Source: a virus. From it: a stretch of DNA of 64,000 bases. The notes under the pieces were generated by a model. It was given only the letters and a program-made list of their open reading frames with translations, searched no databases and had not been told where the DNA came from. Below, piece by piece: positions 32,221 to 49,584 of the stretch. Position 1 is the stretch's first letter. Every line of letters starts with the position of its first letter. The stretch covers positions 1 through 64,000 of IMG/VR virus record IMGVR_UViG_3300045241_000217; one strand, written 5' to 3'. The position numbers and the translations under genes were made by a program.

Positions 32221-34953
32221 TCAGGTGTATCCGCCGCCACCGAGGAACGTGTTGAGCGAGTAGACGGCGCCGCCCGCGTCGGGGCCTCCGCCGTTCGGGT
32301 ACGTGATGTCCGTGGCGGCACCGCCAGCGCTTCCCCAGCCGCGGCCGCCAACCGCGGCTGTGCGGTGGATGTTGCCCGCGTTGCACACGTTGCCGACGAC
32401 GCAGAATCCGGCGGTGTCCATCTTCACGGCGTCCACGACGGCGCCGAAGGTGAAGTTGCAGTTCGTCACGCTCGCCTGCGGGACGGTGGTGAGATCGAAG
32501 CCCTGGCCGAGCACATCGCTGTTCACGACGATGCACGCGTTGAACACCACGATCGCTTCGCCACCGTCTGGCATCGCGCAGAAGCCGCCGTTGCGCTTGA
32601 AGATGCAGCCGGTGAACGTGCACTCGGTGCCGTAGCGGACGCATCGCGCGTTGTTCGTGCCGCGCGCCCACCCGTGGAACGTGCAGTTGGAGACGTTGAT
32701 CTCCTCGCAGTTGTTCTCGCGCAACGCGTACATGCCGGCCGCGAAGGCTGCGAGCGATGTTTCGGTCGCATCCGTCTTATAGCCGGACAGCGTGCAGTCG
32801 TTGACCGTGCAGTCGCGGACGGCCTGCAAGAGGATGCAGCGCAGATCGTTGATGCCCGAATCGTTCCAGTTGCCGCAATTGACGCCCGAGATCTTGCCGC
32901 GCTGGAGCGTCCCGCTGTCGCCCTTGACCCACAGCCCGTAGCAGAAGCGAGCGGCGACACCGTTGTCGCCACAGCCCTCGATGGTCATCCCGTCCACCTT
33001 GAAGCCCACGGGCACCACGAGCTGGCAGCAACCCGCGTCCACGCTGGTCATGCTGTAGGTCTGCTCGGTGATCTGGATGTCGAACGCGGGGTGCGCGCTC
33101 GAACCGATGATCTGGATTCCCCAGCCCACACCGTTCGCTCCTCCGAAGATGCCGGCGCCCGGTGCGTGCGCGCCGGTAGTGGCGGTGCTCCACGTGCAGC
33201 CCTTCACCCGCCAGCCGCGGGGGGCGTAGTTCGTGTTGTAGACGTAGCCGATGAGTCCGCCCTCGTCGCCGTGCACCGCGCCAGTGACGTTCTCCAGGCA
33301 GAGCTTGCTGGCGGAGGCCGCGTCGATCAGCCCGTGCGAGGTGGCTGACGTGTAGATGGTGGTGCCGCGCGCCTCGAGATCGCAGTCGCGGATCGTGAAG
33401 CCGTTCACCATGTCGGGGGTGACGGCAGTCCCAGCGGTGTCGGCGTGCAACACGATCTGCGCGCTCTTCATCCTCGTGCTCTCGATGAGCCCGAACTCGC
33501 GCACGATAGGGATCGCGGAGCCTGTGCCCGACTCGTAGAACTGCGTGCGGCCGCGGATATCGCAGCCGACGATGCGCACCTTGTTCGCCGTGTTTGAGCT
33601 CAGCATGTAGCCCGCTGCGACGTCGGGGTCCGCGCTGGTCTGCAAGATCTGGCAGTGCTGGGCGCGGATGAAGCCGTTCACGACGAAGCCGTTGCGGCCG
33701 CCGGCCGTGGTGCCGATCCATCCGATGTCGAGGCTGTCGAGTACGAGCCCACCAGCGACGTCGGGCCCGAGCGCGATGGCCGACTCGCCCACGCCGAGCG
33801 CGGCACCGTCGATCGTGATCTTCGGTCGTCCGTTCGATCCAGAGTTCAGTTGCCCGTGCGCGATGCCGGCTCGGATGCGGATCACCAGCGACTTGGCCAC
33901 GCCACTGCCGATCGCCTTCTGCCCACTGATGACGAAGCCGTTCCCGCCGGGATCGCCGTGCACGATGATGTCCACGTTGGTCGGGCGGTTTGCGGCCGCC
34001 ATGCCAGCGAGCAGCGCGAGGCATTGGTCGAGACCCGTAGCGCCGTTGAAGTCGCCGACCGTCGCGACGCCATCGCCGACGGTGTACGTGACAGTGTCCA
34101 CCGTGCGGAGGCTCTTCGTGGTGCCGGCGGTGAGCGCTCCGGCCGGGTCGTAGGGCCGGTACGGGCGCGAGAACCAGTCGTACTGGAGCGTGTCGCTCGG
34201 GCCCTTGAGATCCTGCACCTGGCGCATCAGCGCGCGGAGCGCCGGGTAGATCTCGTTAAGCCCGTTCGCGGCGCGATCGGTCGAGCGCGAGAAGTCGGGG
34301 ACGCCCGTGGCGGTCGTCTGCGCGGCCTTCTGGAAGGGCGCTGCTCCTTCGAGTACGAACGTCCGCGCGTCGGTGATATTGCCAGCCACGATCGTGGCTC
34401 CGCCCCACATGACGCTCGCTAGCGTGATCCACTCGGCGCTCGGTGCGCCTGAGAGGCGAAGCTCGAGCGTGGGGAGCGTGCGTGTGTTGGTGGCCGTCAC
34501 GTCCTCGCTCAGCGTGCCCTCGTCCCAGAACGCGCGGTTGTCGCTCGACCCGTCCACGTACACGAAGCGCATCTGCACCGTGTACGTGCCGGGCGGCTGC
34601 GCCGTGAAGTCGAGCGAGTAGGTGGCGTTGCCCTCGAGCGTCCCGTCCTGCCCGTCACCGCCCATGAGCTGACCGAAGTCGATGCGGCCCAGGTTCTCTG
34701 CGCCGATCGCAAACCCCAGTGGAGCTCCACCGCCCGGGTTGAGGCGCACGCGGATGGTTGCGTCGGGAACGGCCTGCGGCTCGACCTTGAAGCCGCGCAC
34801 GACGTAGTTCGTCCACTGCGCGGCTACCACGGCGTCTGGCCCGAGCAGGAGGCCGCGCACGTGGCGTCGGAAGTCGGACAGCACGAGCTCGGTGAGCTGC
34901 GTCATGTCCGAGAGGTCCACGCGTTCCTCGGCCGAGAAGTGAACCTTTTCCAT
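32221..34953 (-). CDS. tail fibre/tailspike with probable parallel beta-helix C-terminus
   Basis: 910 aa at the end of the baseplate module; repeated hydrophobic-x-N/D-C-T-F turns (VNDCTL, VSNCTF, FTGCIF, VTNCNF). Confidence 0.7.
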   Translation of the reverse strand: MEKVHFSAEERVDLSDMTQLTELVLSDFRRHVRGLLLGPDAVVAAQWTNYVVRGFKVEPQAVPDATIRVRLNPGGGAPLGFAIGAENLGRIDFGQLMGGDGQDGTLEGNATYSLDFTAQPPGTYTVQMRFVYVDGSSDNRAFWDEGTLSEDVTATNTRTLPTLELRLSGAPSAEWITLASVMWGGATIVAGNITDARTFVLEGAAPFQKAAQTTATGVPDFSRSTDRAANGLNEIYPALRALMRQVQDLKGPSDTLQYDWFSRPYRPYDPAGALTAGTTKSLRTVDTVTYTVGDGVATVGDFNGATGLDQCLALLAGMAAANRPTNVDIIVHGDPGGNGFVISGQKAIGSGVAKSLVIRIRAGIAHGQLNSGSNGRPKITIDGAALGVGESAIALGPDVAGGLVLDSLDIGWIGTTAGGRNGFVVNGFIRAQHCQILQTSADPDVAAGYMLSSNTANKVRIVGCDIRGRTQFYESGTGSAIPIVREFGLIESTRMKSAQIVLHADTAGTAVTPDMVNGFTIRDCDLEARGTTIYTSATSHGLIDAASASKLCLENVTGAVHGDEGGLIGYVYNTNYAPRGWRVKGCTWSTATTGAHAPGAGIFGGANGVGWGIQIIGSSAHPAFDIQITEQTYSMTSVDAGCCQLVVPVGFKVDGMTIEGCGDNGVAARFCYGLWVKGDSGTLQRGKISGVNCGNWNDSGINDLRCILLQAVRDCTVNDCTLSGYKTDATETSLAAFAAGMYALRENNCEEINVSNCTFHGWARGTNNARCVRYGTECTFTGCIFKRNGGFCAMPDGGEAIVVFNACIVVNSDVLGQGFDLTTVPQASVTNCNFTFGAVVDAVKMDTAGFCVVGNVCNAGNIHRTAAVGGRGWGSAGGAATDITYPNGGGPDAGGAVYSLNTFLGGGGYT

Positions 34954-45020: not shown

Positions 45021-46922
45021 TCAGCCGGTCGCCACGCCACCGTCAGCGGCCTCGCCCAGCCGGCCAGCCGCGTCGGCCGCCTGGTGGAGCAGCCGCTGGA
45101 GATCGAGCGCCGCATGCGGGCCGCTCTCGTAGTGCTGCGACGGCGCGTCACCGCTTCGGCGAGCGGCCGCACGGTCCGCTGGCGAGAGCACCGACGTCGG
45201 CGTCTGTCCCTCGCGCGTGCCGTCGGGGAGGCGAGCGCCGAACATCGCGTCAGCCGCCTCATCGGCTGCCGATCGCATGGTGTCGATCGGATGCGCCAAC
45301 GTGCTCAATGGCGTCGCGCCTCCGCCGCCCGCTCCACCGCCCGGGGGCGTGATGCCGAGGAACTGGAACACGCCGTTCATGAGCGTCCCGAGGTTCTCGA
45401 CGAGGTAGGCCGCGACGCGTTCGATCTGCGGGAGCAGAGCGGCCACCTGGTCCATCTCGGTGTTCCGGATCGACTGGTAGCTGCTCGCGAGGCTCTGGCC
45501 CACGCCCGCGCTGCGGTTGCGGTACGCAGCCTCGGCCGAGCCCACTGACGCTGCGCCGCGTGCGCCACGCCCGCGCCTGCTCAGGAAGTCGGAGCCCTCC
45601 TGCGTTCCCACGCCCCCGTGCAACTGCGACGCGTCGCCGCCCTCCAGCGCATCGATGTCGGTCTCGGTCAGTTGCTGGCCGGTGAGTTCGGGCCCGAGCG
45701 ATCGGATGAGCTGTCGGATGGACTCGCGGTTGCCGCCGCCCGCGGTGCGCAGTTGCCGCACGGCGTTCTCCATCACCTGGTCGGGTGTCTCTTGCAGACG
45801 GCGCATCGCGTCCGAGTACGTGACGCCCCGCTGCCCGTAGCCAGCGGCTTGGAGCGCGACGATCGACGAGACGTTCCCGCTCGGCCGGAAGTGCCTGAGG
45901 TTCGACGTCGCGGAGCCCGCGAGGCTCATCGCGCGCTCGCCGCCGAGACCCATGCGCCCGAGCCCCTGCACGAGCTGCTCGATCGACTCCGCCGAGAGAT
46001 CGGCGCCCTCCATGCGCGCGCTGTCGAGCGAGGAACTCAGGGCCTCCACGTACTCTGGGAGGCGAGCCTCTCGCACGCCGGCCACCATGCCGGCGGTGAT
46101 GGCATGCTGGATCAGCCGCGTCGGATTGTCGGCGTGTCCGCCGGACGTTGTCTGCGCGCGCAGGAGCCCCGCTCCGTTGATGCCCGCGCCGAACTGCGCT
46201 TCGAGCAGCGTCCCCTGCGTGCGCGGATCGAGCTCTTCACCCGTCATACCCGCACCCTGCGCGAAGGCACCGTACTGCGTGGCAGCCTGCCCAGCGTCGA
46301 GCCCGTAGCGTCCGTACCGACCGCTCGTGCGACCACCGCTGCCCAACGCGCCGTACGCGGCCGCACGAGCCTGCTCCTGCGCGACGTACTGCTGATAGTG
46401 CTGCCCGGCCGCGCCCATCGCCCCGCCGAGCACGCCGCCTACGACGGGGATGGAGCTCACCGCCGACTGATAGAACCCGCCCTGGCCTAGCTGGCTGAAG
46501 AGCCCGCCCGCCGTGCTGCCGAGCCGCGAGGCCATCGGGTTCCCGCCGCCACCGCCAGCGGGACCGCCGCCGCGGTTGCCGAGCAGCCGGGTCAGATCCC
46601 GGACGGCCGCAGCCATGTCATTGGCGCCCCCGAACGGTGGCCCGCCGCCTCCGCCACGCGGCCCACCCTGTGGCTGGTTGCTGGGCGGGAAGAACGAGCC
46701 TCCGAAGTGCCCGCCGCCTCCACCGCGCCCGCCCATCGTCTGCTCGAGCCGGCCCGCCGCCTTGGTCAGCGCCTCGATGTGGCGAGCGCTGCGTTCGAGC
46801 GAGCGCTCGAACGCCTGGAGCATCTTCTCGTCGAACGCGCGGTGCAAAGTCGCGTCGAGGCCCTTCAGCGCGCGGTCGTCCACGCTGTACTGAAGGGTCG
46901 TCTTGATCTTCTGATCCGTCAT
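45021..46922 (-). CDS. tape measure protein (putative)
   Basis: Gly/Ala-rich helical 633-aa ORF between the chaperones and the hub. Confidence 0.7.
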   Translation of the reverse strand: MTDQKIKTTLQYSVDDRALKGLDATLHRAFDEKMLQAFERSLERSARHIEALTKAAGRLEQTMGGRGGGGGHFGGSFFPPSNQPQGGPRGGGGGPPFGGANDMAAAVRDLTRLLGNRGGGPAGGGGGNPMASRLGSTAGGLFSQLGQGGFYQSAVSSIPVVGGVLGGAMGAAGQHYQQYVAQEQARAAAYGALGSGGRTSGRYGRYGLDAGQAATQYGAFAQGAGMTGEELDPRTQGTLLEAQFGAGINGAGLLRAQTTSGGHADNPTRLIQHAITAGMVAGVREARLPEYVEALSSSLDSARMEGADLSAESIEQLVQGLGRMGLGGERAMSLAGSATSNLRHFRPSGNVSSIVALQAAGYGQRGVTYSDAMRRLQETPDQVMENAVRQLRTAGGGNRESIRQLIRSLGPELTGQQLTETDIDALEGGDASQLHGGVGTQEGSDFLSRRGRGARGAASVGSAEAAYRNRSAGVGQSLASSYQSIRNTEMDQVAALLPQIERVAAYLVENLGTLMNGVFQFLGITPPGGGAGGGGATPLSTLAHPIDTMRSAADEAADAMFGARLPDGTREGQTPTSVLSPADRAAARRSGDAPSQHYESGPHAALDLQRLLHQAADAAGRLGEAADGGVATG

Positions 46923-46980
46923 CGCGCTCAGAGCGTAGCGCGTTCCTTGCCCGCGCCGTTGCTCGTGCTACCTGTCGATC

Positions 46981-47093
46981 GTCTGTCCCGCCCCAAGGGG
47001 TTCTACACGGTGCTCCTACACCCGATCGATCCGATGCGCGCATGCCTACGACCCCAAGGTCGCGGGACAGACCTTGCTCGCGTCGGATCGATC
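46981..47093 (+). promoter_or_regulatory. structured (pseudoknot-capable) leader upstream of the RAMP-like gene
   Basis: Perfect 11-bp pairs 46981-46991/47062-47072 and 47024-47034/47083-47093 in interleaved order. Confidence 0.5.
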
Positions 47094-47107
47094 AGTTGGA
47101 GGCGCCC

Positions 47108-47734
47108 ATGTTGCGCATCGAAGTCGAGATCGAAGGCCGTACCCCGCTGCTGATGAATCGCATGTCGCCCGAGGCCCTGGAGGGCCTGCGGACGAAAGCG
47201 AAGGCCCCGAAGTCCAAGACCCAAGCGTCGCAGACACCCCGCGAGCAAGCTGAGGCTCACGTCTACAAGCGCACGGACGGCGCGCCGTACTTGCCGGTAG
47301 AGAATCTGCTCTCGTGCCTGATCGCAGCGGGCGTGTTCATCCGACTCGACGGCAAGCGTCAGATGAGCACAGGCAAGAGCACGACAGTGCCTGGACTGTT
47401 CGAGATCGAGGAATCGTGGCTCCCGCTCGTCACGCCATCGGAGAACGGTGCGCGCCCACCGCTCACGTGGGATCCCGACATTCGCCAGGGCCGCAATCCG
47501 AACGGCGGGGAGGCGGTGTGCATCGTGCGGCCGCGCTTCGATCGTTGGGCAGCCTCGCTCACGATCTGCATCGACACCGAGCAGATCGACGAGGCGAAGA
47601 TTCGCGATCTCTTCGACATCGCCGGCAAGCGCATCGGGCTCGGTGACTTCCGCCCGTCGCGCAAGGGTATCTTCGGCAAGTTCAACGTGGCCCGCTGGGA
47701 ACGCCTCGACGCGATCTCTCAAGCCGCGGAGTAG
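47108..47734 (+). CDS. standalone RAMP / Cas7-like RNA-binding protein
   Basis: GGAGG RBS at 47098-47102; N-terminal strand IEVEIEGRTPLLMN, YLPVENLLSCL, RPRFDRW, C-terminal Gly-rich loop IGLGDFRPSRKGIFGKF. Confidence 0.75.
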   Translation: MLRIEVEIEGRTPLLMNRMSPEALEGLRTKAKAPKSKTQASQTPREQAEAHVYKRTDGAPYLPVENLLSCLIAAGVFIRLDGKRQMSTGKSTTVPGLFEIEESWLPLVTPSENGARPPLTWDPDIRQGRNPNGGEAVCIVRPRFDRWAASLTICIDTEQIDEAKIRDLFDIAGKRIGLGDFRPSRKGIFGKFNVARWERLDAISQAAE

Positions 47735-47744
47735 TTTACTCCCG

Positions 47745-47868
47745 GGCTGTGAATGGCTCGGCAGCGCAGCGTTCTGCTCTGTACCGCTTGCCTACGCTCG
47801 GCAGGGTTTCGTGTGGCCTGCGCCGCGGCGCTCCGCATGGTCTGGTGCGGCACTGCAACGCAACGCAA
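47745..47868 (+). repeat. pentamer array 1 (NGYNN, 25 units, one 1-nt slip)
   Basis: ggctg tgaat ggctc ggcag cgcag cgttc tgctc tgtac cgctt gccta cgctc ggcag ggttt cgtgt ggcc tgcgc cgcgg cgctc cgcat ggtct ggtgc ggcac tgcaa cgcaa cgcaa. Confidence 0.85.
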
Positions 47869-47891
47869 GGGCCCCGTGATGGGGATGGTTC

Positions 47892-47937
47892 GCTCCGAGC
47901 ATTGGGCTCGTTGCCGGTTTCGAGGACCGGACGGGGC
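47892..47937 (+). ncRNA. tRNA-like linker 1 (acceptor-like stem + T-arm)
   Basis: gctccg/cggggc stem; ccggt-TTCGAGG-accgg 5-bp stem with 7-nt loop. Confidence 0.6.
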
Positions 47938-47950
47938 ATCACGGAAGGAG

Positions 47951-48075
47951 TGTGGTGCGAGGTAGCGCGGTGTTCCGCAGCGCAGCGCCGGGTCGGGCGG
48001 GGTCGCGCACCGCTAGGTTCTGTAGCGCTCTGCGACGTGTCGCGGGGTAAGGCGACCCATCGCTCTGCTCTCCAA
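47951..48075 (+). repeat. pentamer array 2 (NGYNN, 24 units + tccaa)
   Basis: tgtgg tgcga ggtag cgcgg tgttc cgcag cgcag cgccg ggtcg ggcgg ggtcg cgcac cgcta ggttc tgtag cgctc tgcga cgtgt cgcgg ggtaa ggcga cccat cgctc tgctc tccaa; 23 of 24 units fit, no slips. Confidence 0.92.
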
Positions 48076-48094
48076 GGAGCCCTGGTGGCTGGTG

Positions 48095-48139
48095 GCTACG
48101 AGAGTCGGTCTCTCGGCGGGTTCGATGCCCGCTCGTAGC
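48095..48139 (+). ncRNA. tRNA-like linker 2 (7-bp acceptor-like stem + T-arm)
   Basis: gctacga/tcgtagc perfect 7 bp stacked on gcggg-TTCGATG-cccgc. Confidence 0.7.
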
Positions 48140-48223
48140 GTCTCGCGAGGTCGTGCTGGGCGAGGCGCGGCACTGGGCTGTGCGGTGACGTTCAGCGGTG
48201 CGCGGTACGGTGATGCAATCCAA
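48139..48223 (+). repeat. pentamer array 3 (NGYNN, 16 units + tccaa)
   Basis: cgtct cgcga ggtcg tgctg ggcga ggcgc ggcac tgggc tgtgc ggtga cgttc agcgg tgcgc ggtac ggtga tgcaa tccaa; 15 of 16 units fit. Confidence 0.88.
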
Positions 48224-48241
48224 GGGGCCCTGCGGCCAACA

Positions 48242-48778
48242 TCACCGATCGCCACGCGGGAGGGATCCGAGCAGAGCGCCGACGCGCTCTGCGCCAGGGC
48301 GAGGCGCTTCTTCCGGCTCGTCCTCGTCGGTCATCGCGAAACGAAGAGGCGGCTTGCTGGGATCGGTCTCGGAAAGCTCGAGGGCGTCCCACTCGGCGTC
48401 GCCCGTGAGGTGCGGTGCGTCGGCGAAGGCTCGCCCCTCCTCCGTGTTGTTCACGCGGAAGCGCCCACCCGACACCGGAGCCGGGAGCGTCTCTCCATCC
48501 ATCGTCACCTGCGCCGGTGCCTCGCGAACATCTCGACGAGGCGTCTGCTGCGGTCGGTTCTTGGACCGCACGCGCTCTAGGGCGTCGAGCCCGTAGACCT
48601 GCTCAAGCGCCTCCCTCATCGTCACCTGCGAGAGTCTCTCGTCGCTTGGAGGGAGGCGGAACCTTTCGGCCCACAGGAGCTTCACCACCTCCAGCGGGGG
48701 CATCGTCCGTTCCTCGAACGCCTTCGCCAGCATCTCCGGTGAGCGCGTCCCCGAAACGAAATCGAGCCTCGTGTTCAC
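48242..48778 (-). CDS. tail assembly chaperone, downstream (T-like) frame
   Basis: LWAERFRLPPSDERL motif; overlaps the chaperone ORF and precedes the tape measure; probably reached by frameshift. Confidence 0.6.
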   Translation of the reverse strand: MNTRLDFVSGTRSPEMLAKAFEERTMPPLEVVKLLWAERFRLPPSDERLSQVTMREALEQVYGLDALERVRSKNRPQQTPRRDVREAPAQVTMDGETLPAPVSGGRFRVNNTEEGRAFADAPHLTGDAEWDALELSETDPSKPPLRFAMTDEDEPEEAPRPGAERVGALLGSLPRGDR

Positions 48779-49157
48779 GGCACCTCCCGAACAACGAGAA
48801 GTAGGGCGTCATGTCGTACGAATGTTCTCCGTCCGGCGCATACCAGTCGGGCCTCGGGAACTCCTTGGAGAAGCGAATGGCCACGCTGAGGTACGTGAGC
48901 GCCTCGACCTTCCGCCCGCCCAACTGATCGAACGAGGCGCCGTCGGGGAGGATGTTGGCGCGGAGTTGTGTGATGCGCGTCTCTTCCGCGATGCTCGGGA
49001 CCTTGTAGTGGAAGCGGCCCACGTACTTGCGGCCGCGCTCTCCCACGACGTCGAGATCGATCATCTTGATCGGCGACACGTCCTCGTCCGCGTCCGTCTT
49101 TTTCTTCTCGCCCCGCGCTTGGAGCTCGCGCTCCGCATCTTCGATGGTGCTCGCCAT
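48603..49157 (-). CDS. tail assembly chaperone (G-like)
   Basis: Between tube and tape measure; Y.GRF.YKVPSI.EE..I...R ... PDWY pattern. Confidence 0.65.
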   Translation of the reverse strand: MASTIEDAERELQARGEKKKTDADEDVSPIKMIDLDVVGERGRKYVGRFHYKVPSIAEETRITQLRANILPDGASFDQLGGRKVEALTYLSVAIRFSKEFPRPDWYAPDGEHSYDMTPYFSLFGRCREHEARFRFGDALTGDAGEGVRGTDDAPAGGGEAPVGRKVPPPSKRRETLAGDDEGGA

Positions 49158-49266
49158 GCTCGTCTCCCTGTCAGCCCCGTGCCGACGTCAAGGCGTACCA
49201 CGTACTGGCGCCGAGAGCCGAGCGCGCTAAACCATCGACGCGCGCACGAGCGTGCAGGAGGAACGA

Positions 49267-49584
49267 GTGAACGATCTAGAGCGTGTCGCCCGCACGATCG
49301 CCGGGCTCTACAACAACGCGCGGGGCCCTGGCGTCTTCGGTCTCTTCGACACGAAGAAGATGTCGAGCGGTGAGGCGGTGTCGCTCGCGCGCAAGGCGAT
49401 GGCCTCGTCGAACGGGATCTACTTCGACTATCACAACGCGCGCGTGATGAAGGTTCGGGTCCGCGCCGACGGATCCGGGGAGGACGGCGATCTCTACGAT
49501 CGCGACAACGGCCACGGGGCCTACCGTCGCGCGATCGAGCAAGGCCTCGCCGATGCGGCGTACGACTTCACGGGCATCACGTGA
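49267..49584 (+). CDS. hypothetical protein (plus-strand insert)
   Basis: GTG after hairpin+AGGAGG; YFDY..ARVMKV...LYDRDNG.GA. Confidence 0.65.
   Translation: MNDLERVARTIAGLYNNARGPGVFGLFDTKKMSSGEAVSLARKAMASSNGIYFDYHNARVMKVRVRADGSGEDGDLYDRDNGHGAYRRAIEQGLADAAYDFTGIT

Follow-up and report, generated by a model that had tools for sequence, protein, structure and literature searches.

The two linkers that separate the guide tracts of a phage-borne VIPR locus are predicted to be tRNA-like elements without an anticodon arm, each composed of an acceptor stem, a T arm whose loop reads UUCGANN and, resembling a D arm, a hairpin with GG in the loop. The best reading of these elements, to which we give a probability of roughly 0.6, is that the host tRNA-processing enzymes RNase P and RNase Z cut the guides apart; from the sequence we infer both the co-transcription of the tracts and the cleavages. 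A sequence-only reading of the same DNA had recognised in the linkers a geometry that is kept while the letters change, had taken them for tRNA-like acceptor/T-arm modules and had taken the flanking tracts for guides. Our analysis bears out these points, and the tracts can now be assigned as the vrRNAs of a VIPR system. What is new is the tRNA-like punctuation, here in a three-helix form; the VIPR arrays themselves are known.

The VIPR locus and its guide tracts

The window analysed here, 64,000 nt long, is taken from the start of a complete virus record of 109,170 bp that has direct terminal repeats and a G+C content of 68%; the sole near-identical public match of this stretch is a soil metagenome. 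The vipr gene is the only plus-strand gene among minus-strand neighbours, with tail and baseplate genes on one side and two small ORFs on the other. Directly 3' of vipr lies a 507-nt non-coding gap (47735-48241) that contains three tracts of NGY-NN units with a 5-nt period and, between them, the two tRNA-like elements (Table 1).

Table 1. Features of the vipr gene and the adjoining non-coding gap, in window coordinates
Feature	Position	Strand	Basis
vipr, 208-aa Cas7/Csm3-like RAMP protein	47108..47734	+	phrog_4652, E 3.6e-22
vrRNA tract 1, NGY-NN 5-nt units, CAAGG end at 47866-47870	47745..47870	+	periodicity script: 10 + 10 units in two phases
Putative tail hairpin of tract 1, CCCC-GTGAT-GGGG	47872..47884	+	read from sequence
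Predicted tRNA-like element 1 (linker 1)	47892..47937	+	folds, motif scans
vrRNA tract 2, ~25 units in one phase, CCAAGG end at 48072-48077	47949..48077	+	script scored 21 units; direct reading
Putative tail hairpin of tract 2, AGCC-CTGGT-GGCT	48078..48090	+	read from sequence
Predicted tRNA-like element 2 (linker 2), discriminator G48140	48095..48139	+	fold
vrRNA tract 3, ~16 units, CCAAGG end at 48220-48225	48141..48225	+	periodicity script and direct reading
Putative tail hairpin of tract 3, GGCC-CTGC-GGCC, no tRNA-like element after it	48226..48237	+	fold

VIPR is a CRISPR relative, described in 2026 and proposed to predate CRISPR, that silences double-stranded DNA via a gapped code; its minimal RAMP protein, Vipr, coats vrRNAs that consist of GGY/NN repeats and a structured 3' tail (bioRxiv 10.64898/2026.04.26.720920). 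Four array layouts have been described in the same paper, namely type II, staggered, hammerhead-ribozyme-interspersed and single vrRNAs, and the VIPR papers report vrRNAs of 9-16 units, or roughly 100 nt. The locus studied here is a VIPR system of a Vipr protein and vrRNA guides, because it combines a Cas7/Csm3-like RAMP protein with a GGY/NN 5-nt period and has relatives that bear arrays. The AlphaFold model of Vipr (pLDDT 74.7) has the minimal RAMP/Cas7-like fold: its top Foldseek matches in the PDB are type VII Cas7 and Csm3 (probability 1.0, TM 0.45-0.54), and the G-rich loop GLGDFRP...GIFGKF is conserved. Pfam and PADLOC gave no match for Vipr or its neighbours, and none of the 564 Vipr homologues retrieved carries a name; the closest relatives, P0001 and P0002, are 92% and 89% identical. 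Among relatives of 45-59% identity, found on viral and metagenome contigs, nearly all have such tracts on the strand of the gene, some of them reaching 81 units. The three tracts of the window (47745-48225) hold about 60 repeat units in total and lie on the vipr strand, as they do in homologous loci. We found no vap-like accessory gene on the vipr strand, and the neighbours of vipr have no Pfam or PADLOC match; VIPR loci 'typically' carry vap, which is hence not strictly defining (bioRxiv 10.64898/2026.04.26.720920).

At its 3' end each tract has CAAGG(R) and a 4-bp hairpin whose letters differ, in three copies only and unlike the SUSP1 pseudoknot. The end motif CAAGG(R)GCCC was confirmed in the sequence, and CAAGG(R) with its hairpin is taken to be the putative vrRNA tail. 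This tail is common to all three tracts; after tract 3 it stands without a following tRNA-like element. The first and last tracts each lack an element at their outer end, and each of the two elements is placed after the tail of the preceding tract and before the opening unit of the following one. Because the 25 units of tract 2 exceed the 9-16 reported per vrRNA, further boundaries must exist. In tract 1, a 1-base phase change (a 4-nt unit) occurs at 47815-47825, near 47820, after about ten units, and 1-nt slips are likewise seen every 10-11 units in three other loci (L015, L007 and L008). Such slips may mark the 'staggered' vrRNA boundaries of the VIPR paper. Very long arrays, with up to 81 units in one phase, are found in L026 (1903-2459 and 3065-3194) and L023 (2130-2456 and 3094-3498), and the L026 array is interrupted every 10-13 units by the in-phase motif CAAGG-YN-(T)TTCG-NGG, a different and compact punctuation. 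In L004, two arrays are separated by a T-run and a TTGACG-like box, as read from the sequence.

No promoter-like site was found in the gap, and its one terminator-like site (47787-47805), a number in keeping with the 0.6 expected from shuffles, sits in tract 1 and in neither linker. The divergent intergenic region upstream of vipr (46923-47107) contains nested inverted repeats, one with 31-nt arms that are 81% complementary (47012-47042 / 47075-47105) and one with perfect 11-nt arms (46981-46991 / 47062-47072), which may be an operator or a structured leader. Just beyond the arrays, at 48269-48293, a 9-bp G+C-rich hairpin without a U-run (GCAGAGCGC-CGAC-GCGCTCTGC) falls within the 3' end of the convergent ORF 48242-48778 and may act as a two-way transcription stop. 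This minus-strand ORF shares 176 nt, read in another frame, with its neighbour (48603-49157), so that one of the two starts is probably miscalled; Pfam, PHROG and PADLOC gave no match for either.

Structure and conservation of the two linkers

Every motif that the sequence-only reading had named lies at the position given for it. In linker 2 an acceptor stem of 5-7 bp (GCTACGA 48095-48101 with TCGTAGC 48133-48139) is, as had been claimed, stacked directly on a T arm (48116-48132) made of GCGGG (48116-48120), the 7-nt loop TTCGATG (48121-48127) and CCCGC (48128-48132), for 7 + 5 bp with a G-C closing pair. The element also has a D-like hairpin, GAGAG-TCGGT-CTCTC. The 45-mer folds with an energy of -22.6 kcal/mol (z -2.98), and none of 200 shuffles was as stable.

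The stems and the loop ascribed to linker 1 are likewise present: GCTCCG (47892-47897) pairs with CGGGGC (47932-47937) as the acceptor, and the T arm (47914-47930) consists of CCGGT (47914-47918), the loop TTCGAGG (47919-47925) and ACCGG (47926-47930). The claim of direct stacking needs correcting for this linker, since A47931 forms a bulge or an A.A mismatch at the acceptor/T junction, leaving 6 + 5 bp with a U-A closing pair. The energy of its fold is unremarkable (z -0.5). The 'one short internal hairpin' noted earlier is there (GAGC-ATTGG-GCTC in linker 1), but for both linkers a better reading is that of a hairpin resembling a D arm, with GG in the loop. As had been observed, no CCA is encoded after either linker. 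Together, acceptor and T arm would give the 12-bp acceptor/T stack of a tRNA. The features looked for in an RNase P and RNase Z substrate, namely a 12-bp coaxial stack, a 7-nt UUCRANN loop with a G-C closing pair and the lack of an encoded CCA that RNase Z requires, are present, linker 1 departing from them in its A.A mismatch and U-A closing pair.

Three pairings, each excluding the others, are open to the stretch 47871-47884, just upstream of the linker 1 element. With 47931-47937 it gives a 67-nt cloverleaf-like form (47871-47937) that has a 7-bp acceptor, GCCCCGU/ACGGGGC, and 12 of 12 stacked pairs; with 47938-47944 it makes an enclosing helix; and on its own it can fold into the local hairpin CCCC-GTGAT-GGGG. 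The enclosing helix belonged to the earlier claim, and its complementarity is indeed present (CCGTGAT 47874-47880 with ATCACGG 47938-47944), but the helix is not kept in a related phage from a second sample, X2. We rank the 67-nt cloverleaf second to the short form because in X2 the retained segment 47865-47899 continues into another 3' half, an arrangement consistent with a tail hairpin followed by the short form.

A fixed structural rule (a TTCRA loop on a 5-bp T stem, a 7-nt acceptor stacked directly on that stem with six or more pairs, and an insert of 8-40 nt) finds two elements in the gap. Among 5000 dinucleotide shuffles 12 gave one such element and none gave two, so that about 0.002 would be expected; in the rest of the 109-kb genome, searched on both strands (218 kb), the rule finds three. 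We therefore reject chance as the source of the linkers, their number being far above the shuffle expectation. We also reject an att-site remnant or a terminator, because the linkers are array-internal and repeated and contain no U-run or terminator-like site. With default settings ARAGORN reports no tRNAs and no tmRNA in the genome. At its 80% threshold it calls linker 1 a tRNA-Gln(UUG), a call that we reject since this setting yields 258 calls per 109 kb. Rfam gives no tRNA match in 46000-49500 even at E 10, and no family reaches its gathering score in the window, nor is any known ribozyme found there, hammerhead included; weak snoRNA and miRNA rows are at chance level and were rejected.

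Comparison with X2 separates the linkers from the guides. The vipr gene of X2 is about 88% identical to that of the window, and all three arrays are replaced by unalignable sequence. X2 nevertheless keeps 47865-47899, 48110-48139, 48087-48141 and 48209-48238 at 97-100% identity, the first of these being identical, 48087-48141 having one change and 48209-48238 having three. The first linker of X2 is recombinant and of the linker-2 kind, and the inner hairpin has compensatory changes (GAGUC/GACUC versus GAGAG/CUCUC). Conserved separators and tails together with hypervariable guides are what a functional array would predict.

Related elements in other VIPR loci

To place the two elements, we searched viral contigs for GGTTCRANNCC with a run of eight GY units of period 5 within the next 8-30 nt, keeping acceptor pairing outside the search pattern, and obtained 91 stretches. 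When the T-loop motifs were scored, 188 of 197 gave at least 11 of 12 stacked pairs. In a controlled count, 63% of the 293 TTCRA motifs beside arrays form a T stem and an acceptor with at least 11 of 12 stacked pairs, compared with 1.1% when the upstream 65 nt are shuffled and 4.6% elsewhere in the same loci.

Helix positions 1-11 are paired in 95-100% of 130 unique short elements, with five or six pair types at each position; position 12 is paired in 70%, and the figure drops to 18-41% at positions 13-16. The contiguous stack measures 11-13 bp in 116 of the 130, regardless of whether it is split 5+7, 6+6 or 7+5, and GG stands at a fixed offset of the 10-11-nt insert in 89. We scored ten core pairs in a MAFFT alignment of 117 elements that excluded the window. 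Here 93% of cells pair (60% when shuffled), with 345 double-sided changes (103 when shuffled), and the covariation score is 0.78, which 0 of 500 shuffles reached, against 0.18 when shuffled and at most 0.24 for slid partners. The stems of these 117 elements from other loci thus covary. One outcome that the sequence-only reading had named as refuting, the lack of the structure in homologous loci, did not occur, since modules of this kind also stand between the arrays of homologous and analogous loci.

The tRNA-like elements alternate with arrays in 79 loci, of which 65 also have a Vipr-like ORF, in every case (65/65) on the same strand as the elements. The layouts ATATA, TATAT, ATAT and TATA are all seen, which is to say every end combination of elements and arrays, and the segments between elements have a median length of 86 nt, about that of one vrRNA. 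In several loci, genuine tRNAs (ARAGORN default) lie 1-29 nt upstream of arrays. L056 and L091 have genuine tRNA-Arg, tRNA-Asn and tRNA-Trp genes at three sites each, kilobases apart, with a 10-14-unit period-5 array within 16-29 nt after each; these resemble solo tRNA-vrRNA pairs dispersed along a phage genome. Two separators in L097 (2321-2362 and 2798-2839) match mascRNA-menRNA (RF01684) at 27 bits, below its 42.5-bit threshold; this is the only Rfam model that even weakly matches related elements, and it has no match in the window.

This architecture is found in a minority of arrays. Only 5 of 119 loci (about 4%) chosen on arrays alone have an element, and in the Vipr clade of the window itself the other 25 loci are all without one. 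The form of the element also varies. A covariance model, R1, built from the 117 common short elements of about 41 nt, does not recognise the window elements, matching only the T arm of linker 2 (12.5 bits, E 7), so that the window form is a separate and rarer variant with few sequences behind it. Whereas the common form has a 10-11-nt single strand, the window elements have a short GG-loop hairpin, and their stack is split 7 + 5, the canonical division, versus 5 + 6-7 in the common form. The same three-helix form is found directly after the GGCAAGGG tail in L104, the closest element-bearing locus (Vipr 40% identical), and in several further loci.

A cultured phage has a related locus. In Gordonia phage UmaThurman (NC_031249.1, ~33355-33623; L239:3088-3356), four period-5 GY tracts directly follow gp39, a Vipr-like protein that is 26% identical to the Vipr of the window. 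The tracts overlap the annotated CDS gp40 ('hypothetical protein'), which is probably a mis-annotated vrRNA array, and the locus has no tRNA-like elements.

Proposed guide release by host enzymes and its alternatives

Bacterial RNase P and RNase Z recognise the acceptor/T minihelix and the elbow formed by the T loop and D loop, and RNase Z acts on precursors without CCA. In the mechanism that we propose, the three tracts would most likely be transcribed as one precursor. Host RNase P would cut at the 5' edge of each element and free the upstream vrRNA with its tail of CAAGG and a small hairpin, and host RNase Z, or an equivalent 3' tRNA-processing route, would cut after the discriminator and so create the 5' end of the next vrRNA. 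A 46-nt mini-tRNA would be released as the by-product.

Host-enzyme cutting is the best reading because the stack length is constant, the T loop and GG are near-invariant, CCA is absent and the elements alternate with arrays; because the position is shared with real tRNAs and, in other VIPR types, with hammerhead ribozymes; and because the phage has neither a nuclease nor a ribozyme nor an RNase Z of its own. No RNase Z gene was found in the phage genome, and Pfam and PADLOC revealed no Cas6-like gene. The earlier suggestion that host enzymes replace Cas6 is thus right as to the missing gene, but it holds as an analogy only, since the described VIPR systems have no Cas6. Several observations count against cleavage: the ordinary folding energy of linker 1 and the bulge or A.A mismatch at its junction, the failure of R1 to match the window elements, the 0 of 25 loci in the window's own clade, the figure of about 4% among unselected arrays and the excess length of tract 2.

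It is unlikely that the module instead stays in the mature vrRNA as a structured cap at the 3' end or a handle at the 5' end, there to nucleate the assembly of Vipr or to stop exonucleases. The vrRNAs of SUSP1 do end in a conserved structured (pseudoknot) tail that caps the filament, and the elements described here are conserved and lie within a few nucleotides of the repeats. However, all three tracts of the window have the CAAGG and hairpin tail, including the first and last, which lack an element at one end; in the loci as a whole, either end of an array may have an element or lack one; and genuine tRNAs take the same place. We consider it quite improbable that excised mini-tRNAs with a job of their own, as decoys for tRNA-targeting defences or competitors for the CCA-adding enzyme or RNase P, are the main product and guide release is secondary. 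A near-invariant T loop and GG would indeed give a tRNA-like elbow, and other tRNA-like by-products such as mascRNA are stable RNAs, but RNAs without an anticodon arm would make poor decoys for anticodon nucleases, and the elements are confined to vrRNA arrays, with which they keep step. Least probable of all is that the linkers are decaying phage tRNA relics or recombination scars without present function: full tRNAs adjoin arrays elsewhere, X2 carries a recombinant linker and a degenerate 67-nt cloverleaf can be drawn for linker 1, but the linkers are 97-100% identical in X2 against about 88% for the gene and replacement of the arrays, the enrichment over the shuffled control is about 60-fold (63% versus 1.1%), the stems covary and the stack length is held at 11-13 bp.

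The proposed cleavage by host enzymes has parallels in other systems. Like the elements described here, the tRNA-like domain of tmRNA combines an acceptor stem and a T arm with a D-loop analogue and lacks an anticodon arm; it is processed by RNase P, but it differs in that its halves are split by an mRNA-like domain and in its CCA end and aminoacylation. Cas6 processing of pre-crRNA and mitochondrial tRNA punctuation both cut a multi-guide or polycistronic precursor at repeated structured signals. Unlike the former, the locus has no dedicated nuclease gene and, in place of a repeat hairpin, its signal would be a tRNA mimic; unlike in the latter, the punctuating elements are not functional tRNAs. 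The mascRNA and menRNA at the 3' ends of MALAT1 and MEN-beta have a tRNA-like fold that is cut by RNase P and RNase Z (PMC8457004, PMC11693755), and for mascRNA the RNase P cut sets the 3' end of the upstream RNA (PMC8457004). They share with our elements a tRNA-like fold within a longer transcript but are eukaryotic and single-copy and keep a reduced anticodon arm. In engineered polycistronic tRNA-gRNA (PTG) arrays, guides alternate with tRNA modules, as they do here, and endogenous RNase P and RNase Z release the guides (PMC6297969, PMC13032600). Those arrays, however, are man-made, use full tRNAs and operate in eukaryotes, whereas the present ones are natural, phage-borne and without an anticodon arm.

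The closest comparison is with the VIPR arrays of types I and V, in which hammerhead ribozymes occupy the same position (bioRxiv 10.64898/2026.04.26.720920). Both kinds of locus have a phage-borne Vipr RAMP, GGY/NN arrays and a structured RNA module between vrRNAs, but the separator in the window is predicted to be a tRNA-like substrate of host enzymes rather than a self-cleaving ribozyme. The word tRNA is absent from the text and legends of that paper, of the cryo-EM paper (10.64898/2026.04.26.720927) and of the satellite-competition paper (10.64898/2026.10.15.759431), and 'tRNA-like' is absent from a further paper that mentions VIPR.

The cutting of multi-guide VIPR arrays has been described only for the ribozyme-containing types. 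If the separators are tRNA mimics, a phage-borne guide system can leave the maturation of its guides to universal host enzymes, which would explain how several guides can come from a one-gene locus and would provide compact natural parts (41-46 nt) for guide multiplexing in bacteria. For the broader proposal, we see even odds that tRNA-like punctuation is a general and repeatedly arisen route of VIPR guide production, using genuine tRNAs, 'top-half' elements of about 41 nt or three-helix elements, with the phage wholly reliant on host RNase P and RNase Z. In that reading the freed mini-tRNAs might also receive a CCA tail and serve some purpose of their own. Were this route to prove general, it would be a natural counterpart of the engineered tRNA-gRNA arrays.
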